Of a stretch of DNA of 63,428 nucleotides, positions 37,022-43,145 are shown piece after piece. The stretch lies in assembly GCF_024223415.1 (NCBI RefSeq), contig NZ_CP100504.1. One strand, 5' to 3'. The DNA is from Escherichia coli. Lineage in GTDB: Bacteria; Pseudomonadota; Gammaproteobacteria; Enterobacterales; Enterobacteriaceae. Numbering within the stretch: the stretch's first letter is position 1; every line of letters begins with the position of its first letter. The translations under genes were made by a program, and so were the position numbers. The notes beneath the pieces are model-generated. The model ran no database searches, was not told the DNA's origin, and saw only the letters and a list, made by a program, of their open reading frames with translations.

Positions 37022-37330
37022 ATGGAAAAGAAATTAAGCAGTAAATACATTCATATGTATATGAGTATATCCCGAGTGTTCATTCGTTTGACAGGCAATG
37101 TATTAAAACTGTTTCCTTTTGCTATGGTGATATTCCCTGTGGTGTGGTTTTATCTTTGCCCTGAACATATTATCTCAGACATTGTTAACGACTGGCAGGA
37201 TGCAGATACACTGGAAAAAATACTGCTTGTCAAACTGTATCTGAAGACGGTTCTTATTCTGACAGTGGTAAGCGTTGTTGTCTTGTATCTTTCGTCAGAT
37301 AAGTTTATGCCTGTTAAACGCAGGAAATGA
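37022..37330 (+). CDS. small hypothetical membrane protein (cargo between traU and trbC)
   Basis: 102 aa with two hydrophobic segments; visibly AT-rich compared with flanking tra genes. Confidence 0.45.
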   Translation: MEKKLSSKYIHMYMSISRVFIRLTGNVLKLFPFAMVIFPVVWFYLCPEHIISDIVNDWQDADTLEKILLVKLYLKTVLILTVVSVVVLYLSSDKFMPVKRRK

Positions 37331-37392
37331 GTCTGGTGGTTCTCATAAATATAACTGTGTGTGCATGTGTACAATATAAGTAAAGGTGCGTT

Positions 37393-37914
37393 ATGGGATT
37401 TTTCTCGTTTTTACGAAAGATAAGTAATAAAGAAAAAGGGGTGGTTATCTATGAGAAGCAGTGGTTCTCACTGCTGGAAAAGGTGAGTGCTTTTGATGAG
37501 GTCAGACAATGGGCTGAAAGTAATGGCGGAGCATATTATCCTATGCTGGAGTGTCGTCGGCTTACAGACAGTGAAAATGTCAGGAAATCAGAGGATATAC
37601 TGAACCGACTGGAGTTTATTGACAGAAGATTTCGGGAATTCATCAGCATTATGTCTGAACATATTAATAATGATAAAACTAAATCCATGTGGGAGAGGGA
37701 ATTGTCTGAATATCCACCGGAAAAAATATACCAGGTCCAGAGAGAGGGAGAACATCTGTCATTAAAAAATTATGGTGATGATATTACTCTGAACAGAGAT
37801 ACCGCCGTGGCTACGGTGCAGATTACTGTCAGCAGAAAATGCATTACTCAGGAAGAAATGGATGAATTATATGCATTGTCTGAGAGACTGAAAGAAAAGT
37901 GCGCCGGTAATTAA
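37393..37914 (+). CDS. hypothetical protein (cargo between traU and trbC)
   Basis: 173-aa soluble-looking ORF with RBS aaaggtg; no recognisable motif; AT-rich. Confidence 0.5.
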   Translation: MGFFSFLRKISNKEKGVVIYEKQWFSLLEKVSAFDEVRQWAESNGGAYYPMLECRRLTDSENVRKSEDILNRLEFIDRRFREFISIMSEHINNDKTKSMWERELSEYPPEKIYQVQREGEHLSLKNYGDDITLNRDTAVATVQITVSRKCITQEEMDELYALSERLKEKCAGN

Positions 37915-37940: not shown

Positions 37941-38579
37941 ATGAGCCGGAAAATATTTGAACTTTTTGCCCTGACAGCAGGACTGTTTATTTCTGCCCAC
38001 GCTTCGGAAAATGTGAATACACCCGAAAACCGCCAGTTCCTGAAGCAGCAGGAAACACTGAGTCAGCAGTTACGTGAAAAACCGGACACACAGCTGCAGG
38101 CATGGGCAGAACAGCAGGTCAGGGCGAATCCCCTTCAGCATTCCGATAACCAGTTTCTCGATGAACTGGTCCGTAAACAGCAGGCTGCTCAGAAGGATAA
38201 ACCACAGCAGGGTGCCCTGTATTTTGTGTCGTTTTCCATACCCGAAGAGGGGCTGAAACGGATGCTGGGCGAAACCCGGCACTACGGTATTCCGGCCACA
38301 CTGCGGGGCATGGTGAACAACGACCTGAAGGCTACGGCTGAAGCCGTGTTGTCCCTGGTGAAGAACGGGGCAACCGATGGTGTTCAGATTGACCCGACGC
38401 TGTTTTCACAGTACGGCATTCGCAGCGTTCCGGCCCTGGTGGTGTTCTGCAGACAGGGGCACGACATCATCCGGGGAAACCTGCGTGTCAGACAGGCACT
38501 GGAGAAAGTGGCCAGCGCGGGGGACTGCCGGCAGGTGGCTCAGGGACTGCTGGACGGCACCGGGGATAAATCGCAATAA
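37941..38579 (+). CDS. trbC: TrbC
   Basis: ~212 aa from MSRKIFELFALTAGLFISAHA (signal peptide; RBS gggaga); matches TrbC. Confidence 0.9.
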   Translation: MSRKIFELFALTAGLFISAHASENVNTPENRQFLKQQETLSQQLREKPDTQLQAWAEQQVRANPLQHSDNQFLDELVRKQQAAQKDKPQQGALYFVSFSIPEEGLKRMLGETRHYGIPATLRGMVNNDLKATAEAVLSLVKNGATDGVQIDPTLFSQYGIRSVPALVVFCRQGHDIIRGNLRVRQALEKVASAGDCRQVAQGLLDGTGDKSQ

Positions 38580-38626
38580 GTTTACCTGCAGGCTATTACC
38601 GGATTGACCCGGACATCCGTGCACTG

Positions 38627-38947
38627 GTGTCCGCGATGAACGTGCATGGATTTCGCACATATGCGTCCTGTCAGGGGCATGGCTTCCCTGTTACGAAACT
38701 GCCGCCTTATATCGCCTTTTCCTGTCCGGTAAAAATGGCTGCCCTTCTGGAGCAGCGACTGCGGCAGGATGCTGAATCAGCAATACCACGTCTGACATGG
38801 GGATGGTCGGTGAAGGGGACTTTTAACAGTGATTTTCAGCTTTGCTTCCGGCTTCAGCCTGAAAGCCCTCATCACTGGTATCACCGGTACTGTCGCCGCT
38901 CACTGCGTGCAGACTTCAGGACGCTGGTCCGCTTACTGAATCCGTAA
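38627..38947 (+). CDS. hypothetical Cys/His/Trp-rich protein
   Basis: 106-aa ORF (GTG at 38627 or ATG at 38636) between trbC and traN; function unknown. Confidence 0.4.
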   Translation: MSAMNVHGFRTYASCQGHGFPVTKLPPYIAFSCPVKMAALLEQRLRQDAESAIPRLTWGWSVKGTFNSDFQLCFRLQPESPHHWYHRYCRRSLRADFRTLVRLLNP

Positions 38948-38971
38948 ATCTGTTCCCGTAAGGAGGCATTG

Positions 38972-39394
38972 ATGGCGCTGACAAAGAAGCAGCGGGAAAA
39001 ACTGCGTATGAAATTCGGCGGTCGTTGTGCGTACTGCGGCTGTGAACTGCCGGAAAAAGGCTGGCATGCCGACCATGTTCAGGCGGTGCTCCGCAAGTCA
39101 GAGCAGTGCATGAAGGCTGCAGAAAAGCGCATTTTCAGGCTGAAATCCACCGGTGATGTTTTCAGACCGGAGGCCGACTGTCCGGAAAACCTCGTCCCGG
39201 CCTGTGCGCCGTGCAACCTGCTGAAAACAACATATTCGCTGGAGATGTTCAGAACGCAGGTGTCCCTGCAGGTTGAACGGGGGCGAAGAAGCAGCGTGAA
39301 TTTCAGGACCGCAGAACGGTTCGGGCTGATTCAGGTGGTGAACAAACCAGTCGTGTTCTGGTTTGAGCAATATCAGAGGGAGAGTGAGGTATGA
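38972..39394 (+). CDS. HNH endonuclease
   Basis: 140 aa with CAYCGC...WHADHV...PACAPCN (HNH fold with paired Cys motifs); RBS aggagg. Confidence 0.75.
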   Translation: MALTKKQREKLRMKFGGRCAYCGCELPEKGWHADHVQAVLRKSEQCMKAAEKRIFRLKSTGDVFRPEADCPENLVPACAPCNLLKTTYSLEMFRTQVSLQVERGRRSSVNFRTAERFGLIQVVNKPVVFWFEQYQRESEV

Positions 39395-41241
39395 AACGTC
39401 TTCTGCCATTGCTGCTGGGGCTGGCAGTCAGTGTGGCACAGGCTGACAGCAACAGTGATTACCGGGCGGGTTCTGATTTTGCCCGTCAGATTCAGGGGCA
39501 GGGTACAGGCAGTATTCAGAATTTTAATCCGCAGGAAAGCATTCCCGGCTATAACGCGAATACGGACGAGACAAAATATTACGGTGGAGTGACTGCCGGC
39601 GGGGATGGCGGCCTGAAAAATGACGGCACCACGGAATGGGCGACCGGTGAAACCGGAAAAACTATCACAGAGTCATTCATGAACAAGCCGAAAGACATTC
39701 TTTCACCGGATGCGCCGTTTATCCAGACCGGCAGGGATGTGGTGAACCGGGCTGACAGCATTGTGGGAAACACCGGGCAGCAGTGCAGTGCGCAGGAGAT
39801 AAACCGCAGTGAATTCACAAACTATACCTGTGAGCGGGACACGATGGTGGAGGAGTACTGCACACGGACTGCCAGTATCACCGGGGACTGGAAATACACG
39901 GATGAATATCGTGAGGTGACGATACCGCACTCACAGTTCCAGTTCAGTATGAACGGGCTGAAACTGGTGTTCAGTGTCACGGCTCCGGTAACCGGTACAG
40001 TGGAAAGTGCATCATTGTCTGTATACGCCGCTTTTTTCTTCCTGAATTCTCGTTATACCTTCATGAATTCGACGTTCAATGTTGGCCTGGTAAACGGGCA
40101 GTCGGGTACTTTCCCCTTGTCCGGGGCGACAGGTTTGCAGGTGACACAGGGGCAGGTTCTGACCGGTAGTGGCTGTACTGCAAACGGTAATTGCCTCCCG
40201 CACGGGAACGGTGACAGGAAAGTCTATGAATCGCTTGTCAGTGGTGCTTCCACCTTTACGCTGAAACTCAGGATGAAGGTCCGTGATAAAGAATGGGTTC
40301 CCCGGGGGGAGTGGGTGGAGAGTTGTCCGTTTAATAAAGCGGATGGCGTGCTGAAAGGCACTGAGTGTTCAGAGCCGGGGGGTACGAAAACGGGTGTGAT
40401 GGAAGGTAAACCCTGGAGCATCACACAGGCATGCTGGGCATACCGGGATAAATATGTCACACAGTCCGCAGATAACGGCACCTGTCAGAAATATGTCGAT
40501 AATCCGGCCTGTACGCTGGCCTCACGTCAGTGCGCGTTTTATTCCGATGAGGGAAGCTGTCTGCATGAGTATGCCACGTACTCCTGCGAGTCCAGAACAT
40601 CAGGAAAAGTGATGGTCTGTGGTGGTGATGTCTTCTGCCTTGACGGTGAATGCGATAAGGCACAGAGCGGAAAAAGCAGTGATTTTGGTGAGGCTGTATC
40701 ACAGCTGGCTGCGCTTGCCGCCGCAGGTAAGGATGTCGCCGCCCTGAATGGTGTGGATGTCAGGGCTTTCACGGGCGAGGCGAAATTCTGCCGTAAGGCC
40801 GCAGCCGGCTTCAGTAACTGCTGTAAGGATGGTGGCTGGGGTCAGGATGTGGGGCTGGCGAAGTGTAACAGTGAAGAAAAGGCGCTGGGAAAGGCAAAGG
40901 ACAACAAACTGACGGTGAGTGTTGGCGAGTTCTGTTCGAAAAAGGTACTCGGTGTCTGCCTGCAGAAAAAGCGCAGCTACTGCCAGTTTGATTCGAAACT
41001 GGCGCAGATAGTCCAGCAGCAGGGGCGTAACGGGCAGCTGCGTATCGGGTTTGGCAGCGCCAAAAGTCCTGACTGCCGTGGAATAACCGTGGATGAACTA
41101 CAGCGTATTAAGTTCGACCAGCTGGACTTCACTAACTTCTACGAAGACCTGATGAATAACCAGAAAATCCCGGACAGTGGCGTTCTGACGCAGAAAGTGA
41201 AAGAGCAGATTGCTGACCAGCTGAAGCAGGCAGGACAATAA
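39391..41241 (+). CDS. traN: mating-pair stabilisation protein TraN
   Basis: 616 aa, Cys-rich with signal peptide; matches TraN. Confidence 0.95.
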   Translation: MKRLLPLLLGLAVSVAQADSNSDYRAGSDFARQIQGQGTGSIQNFNPQESIPGYNANTDETKYYGGVTAGGDGGLKNDGTTEWATGETGKTITESFMNKPKDILSPDAPFIQTGRDVVNRADSIVGNTGQQCSAQEINRSEFTNYTCERDTMVEEYCTRTASITGDWKYTDEYREVTIPHSQFQFSMNGLKLVFSVTAPVTGTVESASLSVYAAFFFLNSRYTFMNSTFNVGLVNGQSGTFPLSGATGLQVTQGQVLTGSGCTANGNCLPHGNGDRKVYESLVSGASTFTLKLRMKVRDKEWVPRGEWVESCPFNKADGVLKGTECSEPGGTKTGVMEGKPWSITQACWAYRDKYVTQSADNGTCQKYVDNPACTLASRQCAFYSDEGSCLHEYATYSCESRTSGKVMVCGGDVFCLDGECDKAQSGKSSDFGEAVSQLAALAAAGKDVAALNGVDVRAFTGEAKFCRKAAAGFSNCCKDGGWGQDVGLAKCNSEEKALGKAKDNKLTVSVGEFCSKKVLGVCLQKKRSYCQFDSKLAQIVQQQGRNGQLRIGFGSAKSPDCRGITVDELQRIKFDQLDFTNFYEDLMNNQKIPDSGVLTQKVKEQIADQLKQAGQ

Positions 41242-41264: not shown

Positions 41265-41513
41265 ATGATGAAGGTCATATTCACGTCGAACCGTTTTATT
41301 GATTTTCTTATCCGGCTTTTGATTACAGCGATTGTCATTTCCCCGGTAATTATCTGGTCGTGGGATACGGTAAAAGAAACCACGGCAGACGGGATGCCTG
41401 CCGCTGCTTTCGTTATCCTTTACTCCGGTGTGCTCCTGTTTATTCTGTATTTTTGTTTTTCTGCCCTGACCTGCAGAAAACCGATGAAAGAAAAAATGAT
41501 GAAAGGAATGAAG
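41265..41513 (+). CDS. trbE: TrbE (small membrane protein), frame runs into traF without a stop
   Basis: MMKVIFTSNRFIDFLIRLLITAIVISPVIIW... two TM segments; RBS ggggga; no stop codon before the TraF start in the same frame. Confidence 0.6.
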
Positions 41514-42257
41514 ATGAATAAAGCATTACTGCCACTGTTACTCTGCTGCTTTATTTTTCCGGCGTCAGGGAAAGATGCAGGCTGGCAGTGGTATAACGAG
41601 AAAATAAATCCGAAGGAAAAAGAAAATAAACCTGTACCTGCAGCCCCCCGTCAGGAGCCGGATATTATGCAGAAACTGGCCGCGCTGCAGACGGCAACAA
41701 AGCGGGCGCTGTACGAAGCCATTCTGTATCCCGGCGTGGATAATTTTGTGAAATATTTCCGGCTGCAGAATTACTGGACTCAGCAGGCCGGGCTTTTCAC
41801 CATGAGTGCTAAAAAAGCTATGCTGGCACATCCCGAACTGGACTATAACCTGCAGTACAGCCATTACAACGGCACGGTCCGGAACCAGCTGGCGGCAGAC
41901 CAGGCGCAGCAGCGACAGGCCATTGCGAAACTGGCTGAACACTACGGCATCATGTTTTTTTACCGGGGGCAGGACCCCATCGACGGGCAACTGGCGCAGG
42001 TCATTAATGGCTTCCGGGATACCTATGGTCTGAGTGTTATTCCCGTTTCCGTGGATGGCGTGATTAATCCGCTGTTGCCGGATTCCCGGACTGACCAGGG
42101 GCAGGCGCAGCGCCTCGGCGTGAAATATTTCCCGGCCATGATGCTGGTAGACCCGAAACAGGGCAGTGTTCGCCCGTTATCATACGGCTTTATTTCGCAG
42201 GATGACCTGGCAAAACAATTCCTGAACGTTTCTGAAGACTTTAAACCGAATTTTTAA
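41514..42257 (+). CDS. traF: pilus assembly protein TraF (thioredoxin-like fold)
   Basis: 247 aa from MNKALLPLLLCCFIFPASG (signal peptide) with RBS aaagga upstream; matches TraF. Confidence 0.85.
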   Translation: MNKALLPLLLCCFIFPASGKDAGWQWYNEKINPKEKENKPVPAAPRQEPDIMQKLAALQTATKRALYEAILYPGVDNFVKYFRLQNYWTQQAGLFTMSAKKAMLAHPELDYNLQYSHYNGTVRNQLAADQAQQRQAIAKLAEHYGIMFFYRGQDPIDGQLAQVINGFRDTYGLSVIPVSVDGVINPLLPDSRTDQGQAQRLGVKYFPAMMLVDPKQGSVRPLSYGFISQDDLAKQFLNVSEDFKPNF

Positions 42258-42377
42258 AGAGGTCATTTAAATGAATTTTATTTCTTTATGGCCTTTATTG
42301 CTGGCCCAGGTGACAGTCATGTCACTGACAGTGATTTTCCTTGCTGCTGACAGGCGTTTTTTTCATGGGACTGTTTT

Positions 42378-42632
42378 GTGGTTTGTACCCTGTCCATGAT
42401 GATGGCGGAAGGTATTGTTATTATGAAATATGAATTGTGGCATATCCCTCCTGCCCTGCTGGGTCTGGCAGGAGTGTTGTCATGGTTGCTGCTGCTACTC
42501 CATACAGGATATTTTTCAGGCATATCAGAAGGAGTGCATAAGCGTTTGTGGCTCGCTGTTGCCGCAGTGTTTTCTGGTGCGGGAATGATTATATTCTACT
42601 GGTTGCTCCATGCATTGCATCAGAAAACATAA
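42378..42632 (+). CDS. TrbA-like membrane protein (tentative)
   Basis: 84-aa hydrophobic ORF in the traF-traQ interval where F carries trbA and antisense artA; a minus-strand ORF (42589-42807) may correspond to artA. Confidence 0.35.
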   Translation: MVCTLSMMMAEGIVIMKYELWHIPPALLGLAGVLSWLLLLLHTGYFSGISEGVHKRLWLAVAAVFSGAGMIIFYWLLHALHQKT

Positions 42633-42863
42633 TAAAATAACGAATAGTTAATGCGAGAATAAGACACATCCAGAGAATAAATATTATAAGTGCGAGTTTT
42701 GCTCTTCTTATTCGTAACGCGGACAAGTAATTTATTACAGAGAGGAGCATCCAGAGTTCAATGCATATTATTATTAATATAAAAACAGAGAGCGTGATAA
42801 TTAACATAACTGTGTCTGATTGATGAAATCAGCAATATACTGAATAATAATGGTGTTTTAAAT

Positions 42864-43145
42864 ATGAGAAAATATAAATTCTCTTTACCCCGGCTTGATA
42901 TTACGGGTATGTGGGTATTTTCCCTGGGTGTCTGGTTTCATATCGTCGCCCGTCTTGTTCACAGCAAACCCGGGATGGCTTTTTTTCTGGCGGAGCTTAT
43001 TGCGGCTATTCTCGTGCTGTTCGGTGCATACCAGGTGCTGGATGCATGGATTGCCCGGGTCAGCCGGGAAGAGCGTGAGGCGCTGGAAGCCAGGCAACAG
43101 GCCATGATGGAAGAGCAGCTGGAGGGCGGACATGTCTCTCACTAA
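42864..43145 (+). CDS. traQ: pilin chaperone TraQ
   Basis: 93-aa membrane protein; matches TraQ. Confidence 0.85.
   Translation: MRKYKFSLPRLDITGMWVFSLGVWFHIVARLVHSKPGMAFFLAELIAAILVLFGAYQVLDAWIARVSREEREALEARQQAMMEEQLEGGHVSH

Follow-up and report, generated by a model that had tools for sequence, protein, structure and literature searches.

An optional HNH nuclease gene and a TYW3-like gene at the trbC–traN junction of an F-like conjugative plasmid

Why does the transfer operon of a conjugative plasmid carry a gene for a nuclease? In Enterobacteriaceae, resistance and virulence genes travel chiefly on F-like plasmids, whose tra operon tends to be regarded as a fixed machine. The DNA that raises the question here, hereafter the window, is a 63,428-nucleotide (nt) stretch of Escherichia coli contig NZ_CP100504.1 (assembly GCF_024223415.1), to which all positions refer. 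The window is an F-like conjugative plasmid (MPF_F, MOBF), on whose + strand traW, traU, two open reading frames (ORFs) of low guanine-plus-cytosine (GC) content, trbC, an ORF of 123 codons (ORF123), an ORF encoding an HNH protein, traN and trbE/traF follow one another. An earlier inspection of the bare letters, hereafter the sequence-only reading, had seen in the HNH gene either a free-standing selfish or homing nuclease or a factor acting on DNA during transfer. The answer to which we give about an even chance is that ORF123 and the HNH gene form an optional, mobile two-gene accessory cassette, that this cassette is one allelic form of the trbC/traN junction and no part of the type IV secretion system (T4SS), and that its nuclease serves itself or its carrier.

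We are firm on one part of this answer, namely that the cassette is not a T4SS component and is dispensable for conjugation. F and R100 are transfer-proficient without it, as are most F-like plasmids, so the cassette is dispensable for transfer. A factor acting on DNA during transfer is thus unsupported, and homologues of the nuclease lie outside transfer genes. A core MPF_F gene would be expected in all transfer-proficient F-like plasmids, always at one operon position; the cassette is absent from R100, from F-type plasmids and from ~88% of the E. coli carriers of F-like plasmids, and neither ORF123 nor the HNH gene is among the 36 MPF_F genes surveyed in 256 F-like plasmids (PMC5102898).

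Anatomy and alleles of the trbC–traN junction

In plasmids near-identical to the window, the annotation of the region matches its gene order, with trbC, a 'hypothetical protein', an 'HNH endonuclease signature motif containing protein' and traN. The features of the junction are as follows.

37941–38579, + strand: trbC, F-type pilin assembly protein, left flank of the cassette, as annotated in near-identical plasmids.
38543–38579, + strand: last 37 nt of trbC, a diverged tract tied to the cassette, with 17 of 37 positions unlike R100.
38576–38947, + strand: ORF123, predicted TYW3-like (RAGNYA-fold) accessory protein, 123 codons, overlapping the trbC stop.
38948–38971, + strand: spacer of 24 nt holding the HNH ribosome-binding site AAGGAGG at 38960–38966, read from the sequence.
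38972–39394, + strand: gene for a predicted HNH (beta-beta-alpha-metal) nuclease of 140 amino acids (aa), H-N-N variant with two CxxC zinc ligand pairs, assigned to PHROG 2118.
39391–41241, + strand: traN, mating-pair stabilisation protein, right flank of the cassette, as annotated in near-identical plasmids.
39400–39435, + strand: traN nt 10–45, a diverged tract tied to the cassette, from the comparison of R100 with pSK1144.
38890–39490, + strand: near-identity block made up of the ORF123 3′ end, the HNH gene and the first 100 nt of traN, from a comparison of five carriers (the window and loci L014, L032, L033 and L034).

The HNH gene starts at ATG 38972, 5 bases 3′ of the Shine–Dalgarno sequence AAGGAGG (the mechanical ORF list has TTG 38969), and its TGA stop overlaps the ATG of traN (ATGA). 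The cassette has a GC content of ~55%, equal to that of the adjacent tra genes, and a search of it found no promoter-like site, terminator, target-site duplications or terminal inverted or direct repeats above chance. Lacking a promoter or terminator of their own, both genes should depend on tra-operon transcription, and we hold firmly, judging from this layout, that they would be expressed, if at all, via the tra operon.

Empty trbC/traN junctions, a complete lack of which would have counted against the sequence-only reading, are common. The whole cassette is present in 537 of the 3645 plasmids that match the trbC–traN region and, among 5426 complete E. coli genomes, in 308 of the 2508 that carry an F-like traN 5′ end (~1 in 8). 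Four alleles of the junction occur. In the majority form, that of F-type plasmids and R100, the junction is empty and the trbC stop overlaps the traN ATG; the second form holds both ORF123 and the HNH gene. The third, found in pSLT-like Salmonella virulence plasmids, holds the HNH gene only and keeps a ~20-nt remnant of the ORF123 5′ end, and therefore derives from the two-gene form by deletion. In the fourth, 90–235 nt of unrelated sequence lie between ORF123 and traN, and the traN 5′ end is itself of another type; two such plasmids, CP090858 (L004 1078–1170) and CP088444 (L005 1078–1312), have a different and longer annotated traN N-terminus, MKEKINTFF..., and hold no recognisable HNH remnant.

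Since each occurs alone, ORF123 and the HNH gene are two independent accessory genes. Their records in the PLSDB database point the same way: ORF123 is found in about 687 records of F-like plasmids at 80–99% identity and the HNH gene in about 540, all at least 98.1% identical, and the different numbers and identity ranges again mark the genes as independent. The pairing of the two ORFs in the sequence-only reading is therefore not borne out. We likewise rejected a functional pair, in which ORF123 would act as a specificity or immunity factor, because either gene can be found alone and, at the loci examined, no nuclease adjoins the ORF123 relatives.

The boundaries of the cassette are sharp. 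Plasmids pSK1144, which is filled, and R100, which is empty, are near-isogenic, with 5 differences in the 993 nt of traU (99.5% identity) and the same TrbE, TraF, TrbA, TraQ and TrbB proteins. Heterology between them is limited to the cassette and two short tracts at its edges, one of 37 nt at the end of trbC (17 differences) and one at traN nt 10–45, which takes up all 15 differences in the first 60 nt of traN; traN nt 46–1851 are ~99% identical. Nearly all empty alleles align to the traN of the window only from nt 41–52 on, mostly from nt 44, and this fixed right boundary could be a single ancestral recombination joint, located at the start of sequence that is conserved even in pSLT. Among carriers, the four comparisons show 0–2 mismatches per 50 nt in the 38890–39490 block and 4–17 in the 3′ end of trbC and the leading two-thirds of ORF123; the trbC alleles that neighbour the cassette share just 80% identity. 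That the HNH block is near-identical was considered as proof of a recent sweep and rejected: traU has the same baseline (97–99.5%) and the HNH gene finds no partner for recombination in empty plasmids, so the low diversity of the block is not diagnostic. The cassette was also tried as a marker of an 'R100-like' lineage and failed, R100 itself being empty.

The HNH protein and its relatives

The HNH signatures that had been reported in the 140-aa ORF between trbC and traN stand up to closer analysis. The motifs CAYCGC, HADH and CAPCN are all present, and in an alignment of 11 plasmid and phage homologues (to 56% identity) the zinc and catalytic residues are intact throughout, with C19, C22, H32, D34, H35, N73, C78, C81, N82 and K85 invariant. 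The same alignment shows a conserved C-terminal region of ~50 aa, within which NFRTAERFG..KPVVFWFE is invariant. All hallmarks of the beta-beta-alpha-metal superfamily are found, including the DH base, the structural Asn, the terminal metal ligand and two CxxC pairs, and the residues align to the CxxC, DH, N and CxxCN elements of Gmet_0936 (PDB 4h9d), which is likewise an H-N-N variant. The PHROG 2118 'HNH endonuclease' profile matches the protein over its full length (residues 1–138, E 8.7e-58, 197 bits), weaker matches link it to the endonuclease VII families PHROG 1035 (E 4e-10) and PHROG 2914 (E 1e-6), and a large protein database holds 1343 homologues.

Other resources recognise the protein poorly. 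The Pfam HNH model PF01844 gives two split, sub-threshold matches only (i-Evalue 0.27 and 2.1), because an insertion of ~30 aa parts the 'DH' hairpin from the 'N...CxxCN' helix. NCBIfam gives only motif-level matches, to retron-HNH and IscB, and PADLOC only motif-level matches to PtuB and PDC-M01B, of 17–30 residues and E ≥ 6e-4, which are not significant. Among solved structures, a sequence search gives marginal matches to 4h9d only (E 0.19–1.1), and literature searches found no experimentally characterised member of the PHROG 2118 family. Thousands of records already annotate the gene, which falls into an established superfamily and an established phage family. By analogy with other small phage HNH enzymes, we infer that the protein nicks or cuts DNA; given its 140 aa, with no recognised domain for binding a long target, it is more likely to be a short-site nickase than a classical homing enzyme.

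Selection on the protein is strong. Between the window or the Kp444 plasmid and pSLT, the ratio of non-synonymous to synonymous substitution (dN/dS) of the HNH gene is 0.05–0.10 at a dS of 0.55–0.62, as low as that of traU (0.05–0.07) and lower than that of trbC (0.08–0.21). At three of the four sampled E. coli and Klebsiella cassette loci (L014, L033 and L034) the protein is the same as that of the window, and at the fourth (L032) one residue differs; this constancy holds despite synonymous change, and the adjoining ORF123 has just 88–97% DNA identity to that of the window. On this comparative evidence we firmly conclude that selection has kept the predicted nuclease in working order, in plasmids and phages alike.

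Close relatives of the HNH gene lie in a range of mobile elements, among them enterobacterial phages both temperate and virulent. The pSLT copy is 91% identical to that of the window at the aa level. The closest phage copy (87% aa identity) is gp24 of the P22-like Salmonella phage g341c; it belongs to the early 'ea' region, which is non-essential, and its annotation notes a similarity to PSLT094.1N of pSLT. In the E. coli siphophages Bas77–80, copies 81% identical stand just upstream of the terminase genes, and another 81% copy lies near the end of the HC6 record. Many copies, 87–92% identical, are found in Salmonella genome contigs (one of 4.87 Mb) and are taken to be prophage copies. More distant copies occur in the accessory regions of IncHI2 and IncHI-type plasmids, adjoining DUF6012 and PAPS-reductase-family genes, and of a Klebsiella plasmid of 412 kb, there close to dam and rdgC. 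From these varied contexts it follows that the HNH gene is a promiscuous passenger of mobile elements, with no constant link to secretion genes. In two of the IncHI-type plasmids (L008 4866–6121 and L010 4888–6051) the homologues carry an N-terminal extension of ~35 aa, a DUF6012 gene always comes next and a large PAPS-reductase-family gene stands a few genes upstream, a conserved neighbourhood that might hint at the function of the family.

ORF123 and its relation to TYW3

ORF123 is, on the comparative evidence below, a real gene, although not in the form first described. The sequence-only reading had taken it as an ORF of 106 aa; the annotation and all homologues place the start at 38576, 17 codons 5′ of GTG 38627, so that the gene has 123 codons and the form beginning at the GTG is truncated. 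The additional N-terminal residues are conserved in homologues and include an invariant Asp, D11. In relatives, ORF123 starts with an ATG that overlaps the trbC stop (CAATGA, an ATGA overlap). At this position (38576–38578) the window and pMTY1886 have ATA and other carriers ATG; the same base change converts the trbC stop from TGA to TAA and leaves the ORF123 reading frame intact. From either of the next in-frame starts, GTG 38627 and ATG 38636, the product would lack the invariant Asp11 and half of its first helix. The ORF123 of the window may therefore be poorly translated or, to judge from its sequence, on the way to becoming a pseudogene. For the gene at large, dN/dS is 0.16–0.22.

The description of the product as Cys/His/Trp-rich was overstated. 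In 47 diverse members of the family, the near-invariant residues are L17, V18, T28, S31, C32, G34, H35, P44, Y45, F48, L73, W77, F83, L93 and D113, of which only C32, H35 and W77 are of those three types, and the family hallmark is a 'T..SCxGH' motif. Because these are the residues that the family conserves, the Cys and His content appears incidental and the protein does not look like a zinc finger. Close homologues found in Enterobacterales number 45, and a profile of the family collects 453 clusters at 50% identity among 1.84 billion representatives.

Six of the seven closer homologues with a context that we examined lie inside F-type T4SS operons, at five different positions: between trbI and a dsbC-like gene/traW (L017–19), after traF (L015), upstream of traH (L031), between traH and traG (L016) and directly after trbC (L029). 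They often overlap the preceding gene by 4 nt. The seventh is on a 4-kb contig on which all neighbours are unannotated. More distant members lie in integrase/AlpA islands, and in four of these the 3′ end of the ORF123 relative is overlapped by a convergent ORF of 77 aa on the opposite strand (L020 6343–6576, L021 4841–5074, L022 869–1102 and L023 906–1139). That ORF may be a partner or regulator of the island relatives; it has no equivalent in the window.

Searches with the single ORF123 sequence found no Pfam, NCBIfam, PHROG, PADLOC or PDB match, and a link to TYW3 surfaced only through a fold search and the broad family profile. The AlphaFold2 model, with a mean predicted local distance difference test score (pLDDT) of 82, has an N-terminal helix followed by a beta-beta-alpha-beta-beta-alpha core. 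Three independent lines of evidence converge on TYW3: the fold search gives similarity to solved structures of Taw3; the three best PDB sequence matches of the family profile are Taw3 proteins (E 0.02–0.33), in alignments that coincide exactly on 'D..I..L..N...T..SCxG'; and 6 of the 47 members have weak matches to the Pfam TYW3 model (best E 5e-3). Against viral proteins, the fold search retrieved only uncharacterised proteins of jumbo phages.

TYW3 is defined by the motif (S/T)xSSCxGR together with an N-terminal Asp and a His that bind S-adenosylmethionine (SAM) (Currie et al., PMC5311493), and its architecture has three parts, an N-terminal extension, a RAGNYA domain and an SHS2 domain (PMC5311493). 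The ORF123 consensus, T-x-A-S-C-x-G-H, keeps the Thr, the second Ser, the Cys and the Gly of the motif; compared with TYW3/Taw3 (PF02676; PDB 1tlj, 2drv, 2qg3 and 2dvk), an invariant His replaces the essential Arg and an Ala the first Ser, so that the TYW3 signature itself is absent. As in TYW3, there is an N-terminal Asp: D11 stands in 'IDPDI' and is invariant in closer homologues, the Sulfolobus enzyme 1tlj has 'LDPDI' and three Taw3 chains have 'D..I'. Unlike TYW3, ORF123 shows no equivalent of His73, the SAM-binding residue with which RAGNYA strand 3 ends, H35 being its sole conserved His, and with 123 aa as opposed to about 190–210 aa it has neither an SHS2 domain nor room for one; it also falls below the Pfam thresholds. 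TYW3 is a housekeeping tRNA-yW N4-methyltransferase of archaea and eukaryotes, whereas ORF123 is bacterial and borne by mobile elements. On the model, ORF123 appears to be TYW3-like, comprising the N-terminal helix and the RAGNYA half of the fold, and is not a TYW3; we infer that it binds a nucleotide cofactor or nucleic acid. The family is unnamed. Both the TYW3-like fold and the shifting place of the gene within F-type operons are new findings, though of modest weight.

Whom the nuclease serves, and comparison with known systems

In the reading that we favour, the cassette would be transcribed with the tra operon and stitched into it by translational coupling, through the overlaps of the trbC stop with the ORF123 start and of the HNH stop with the traN start. 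ORF123 and the HNH protein would be unrelated passengers, and the likeliest beneficiary of the latter would be the gene itself or the element that carries it. The nuclease might stimulate recombination or gene conversion and so maintain the cassette in related plasmids or spread it between them, a homing-like role that we regard as doubtful on the sequence evidence, or might give the mobile element some other service that does not depend on conjugation.

A more specific proposal, which we consider somewhat unlikely, makes the HNH protein a plasmid-borne, intron-less homing or 'trans-homing' nickase and ORF123 a second, independent class of donor-expressed accessory gene that hops between positions in F-type operons. 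The two further steps of this proposal we put forward just as tentatively. When an R100- or F-type relative is co-resident, the enzyme would nick or cut the empty trbC/traN junction, or traN within its first 45 nt. Repair, again a step that we think rather unlikely, would then copy the cassette with only tens of nt of co-converted flank, a gene drive between conjugative resistance plasmids. Some observations fit. Presence and absence alternate at one site in close relatives, R100 being empty and pSK1144 filled, and small phage HNH enzymes are site-specific nickases for which Xu and Gupta proposed stimulated conversion of HNH-minus genomes (PMC3592412). As a hint on cleavage or immunity, the sequence offers solely the diverged flanks of 37 nt and 45 nt. 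As for independent invasion, trbC alleles only 80% identical stand beside the cassette, but the HNH gene is a single allele group with a diversity equal to the traU baseline. An optional nuclease, empty near-isogenic alleles and short diverged flanks plausibly resemble free-standing homing endonuclease genes, and none of them is diagnostic. Of the selfish or homing nuclease first suggested, the optional gene embedded in an operon thus stands, and the selfish interpretation, homing included, is compatible with the data.

Several observations weigh against the favoured reading. All E. coli and Klebsiella copies of the HNH gene belong to one allele group (at least 98.1% identical), and their dS from pSLT, 0.62 ± about 0.11, is marginally below that of the backbone (traU 0.91, trbC 1.03); a single group with backbone-like dS is equally well accounted for if the gene was gained once, long ago, and then passed on by descent with ordinary recombination. 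Nor does the low diversity of the HNH block call for drive. The HNH gene of pSLT adjoins an 'empty-type' traN 5′ end, so the nuclease and the flank divergence do not always go together. With its 140 aa, the protein has no recognised module of the kind with which homing endonucleases typically bind long targets. Its AlphaFold2 model, from the 11-sequence alignment, is poor (mean pLDDT 54) and was left out of the fold search, and full-text literature searches on the HNH gene or locus in F-like plasmids found no study. A comparison of F with R100-1 by Anthony et al. in 1999 reportedly may cover the trbC–traN region.

A fairly unlikely alternative is that the nuclease serves the plasmid during or after conjugation, by attacking competing DNA (resident plasmids, phage or host defence nucleic acids) or by processing intermediates of transfer or replication. 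In that case, and we rate this elaboration no higher, it would be made in donors along with the tra gene products, or soon after entry into a new host, and ORF123 would take part in the same pathway by modifying or binding nucleic acid. The placement of the cassette inside the tra operon, with translational coupling, would suit such a role, as would purifying selection of a strength unusual in a purely parasitic gene, the near-confinement of close ORF123 relatives to F-type T4SS operons, the company of dam, rdgC and PAPS-reductase-type genes that HNH homologues keep in IncHI and other large plasmids, and the weak matches to endonuclease VII families (PHROG 1035 and 2914). It is harder to reconcile with F, R100 and most other F-like plasmids, which transfer proficiently without the cassette, with the separate occurrence of the two genes, and with the HNH homologues of other plasmids and phages, which do not adjoin transfer genes. 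Neither a signal peptide nor a known T4SS substrate signal is present, and PADLOC, with its motif-level matches to the HNH protein, has no match to ORF123.

It is less likely still that the cassette is a passive hitch-hiker, acquired in one recombination with a divergent F-like plasmid or phage and kept by linkage and because its loss would disrupt the translational coupling of traN, with a nuclease that has no role. One ancestral joint would predict flank boundaries fixed population-wide, as they are, and a single E. coli/Klebsiella allele group; many carriers are, moreover, near-identical plasmids from Klebsiella and from animal and human E. coli. Decay is also seen, in the deletion of ORF123 in pSLT, the absence of the HNH gene from ORF123-only alleles and the mutated ORF123 start of the window. 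What speaks against a roleless nuclease is its dN/dS at so large a dS from pSLT, which indicates long-term selection on the protein within plasmids, and its constancy at the sampled loci while the adjoining ORF123 diverges far more.

The last alternative, a stranded phage DNA-packaging HNH that acts as terminase cofactor in cos phages such as HK97 gp74, is highly improbable, as terminase, portal and cos context are absent from the window, where the neighbours are trbC and traN, the closest phage copy lies in the non-essential 'ea' region of g341c, P22-like phages use headful packaging and no cos sites, and selection has been maintained in plasmids. In its favour are the copies just upstream of terminase in Bas77–80 and near the end of the HC6 record, the Bas77-type arrangement matching that described for packaging HNH proteins (PMC3592412).

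Other parts of the operon vary as well. Between traU and trbC, a low-GC insert at 37022–37914 (36–40% as opposed to ~55% in the flanks) holds two ORFs that match no family, a hydrophobic one of 102 aa and another of 173 aa; this interval is polymorphic, with one ORF of ~101 aa in R100 and F-type plasmids, none in pEC361_5 and an IS3 insertion in pMTY1886. At 41265–42257, a 4-nt deletion near 41470, at the trbE 3′ end, runs trbE into the traF frame and creates a 330-aa trbE–traF fusion ORF, within which traF retains an internal start and its signal peptide; pMTY1886 shares the deletion, and the Kp444 plasmid and the empty-site plasmid of strain fS149a (L027) do not. The traF–traQ interval at 42260–42870 (trbA/artA region), with a GC content of 34–44%, fails to align with several otherwise similar plasmids and so appears to be another variable operon junction. 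Independent of the cassette is a mosaic variation of the flanking genes: the 5′ half of trbC (37941–38200) has 65–87% identity to R100-type plasmids that are otherwise ~98% identical, and the centre of traN (39840–40400) has just 25–45% identity to the traN of pEC26-3, a patch that we presume to be the known receptor-specificity region.

Within a supposedly fixed operon, junctions thus serve as landing sites for optional genes that would ride on tra transcription and translational coupling. One such passenger is an intact nuclease gene shared with phages and under selection as strong as that on traU. Should the nuclease convert empty alleles, it would be a rare example of plasmid-to-plasmid homing and a source of recombination in traN, a region that sets mating specificity; should it instead attack foreign DNA, it would be an unrecognised factor in plasmid competition. 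The ORF123 family, with about 450 clusters at 50% identity and a motif like that of the TYW3 catalytic centre, is a lead for a new activity directed at nucleotides or nucleic acids.

Compared with known systems, the locus combines familiar elements in an unfamiliar place. As with the free-standing homing genes of T-even phages (MobE, Seg), an optional nuclease ORF lies between conserved genes, has presence and absence alleles and is bordered by short diverged flanks; unlike these, the HNH protein of the window has no identified extended DNA-binding domain, resides in a plasmid instead of a phage and forms one allele group. Similar to the small phage HNH nickases (N.phiGamma, HK97 gp74 and Gmet_0936), it falls within a size range of ~110–140 aa and has a [CxxC]2 zinc site and a DH base, and with 4h9d it shares the CxxCN H-N-N variant; the similarity to these three is at the motif level only, and the ~30-aa insertion, an unrelated C-terminal domain and the absence of terminase neighbours set it apart. 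Its nearest kin are the phage HNH proteins of PHROG 2118 and PSLT094.1N, to which it is homologous over its full length, with the same motifs and the same conserved C-terminal region, and from the phage relatives it differs in lying inside a tra operon and in being coupled to traN. At present, the locus is best placed beside these as a well-annotated, uncharacterised accessory cassette and not as a new kind of system.

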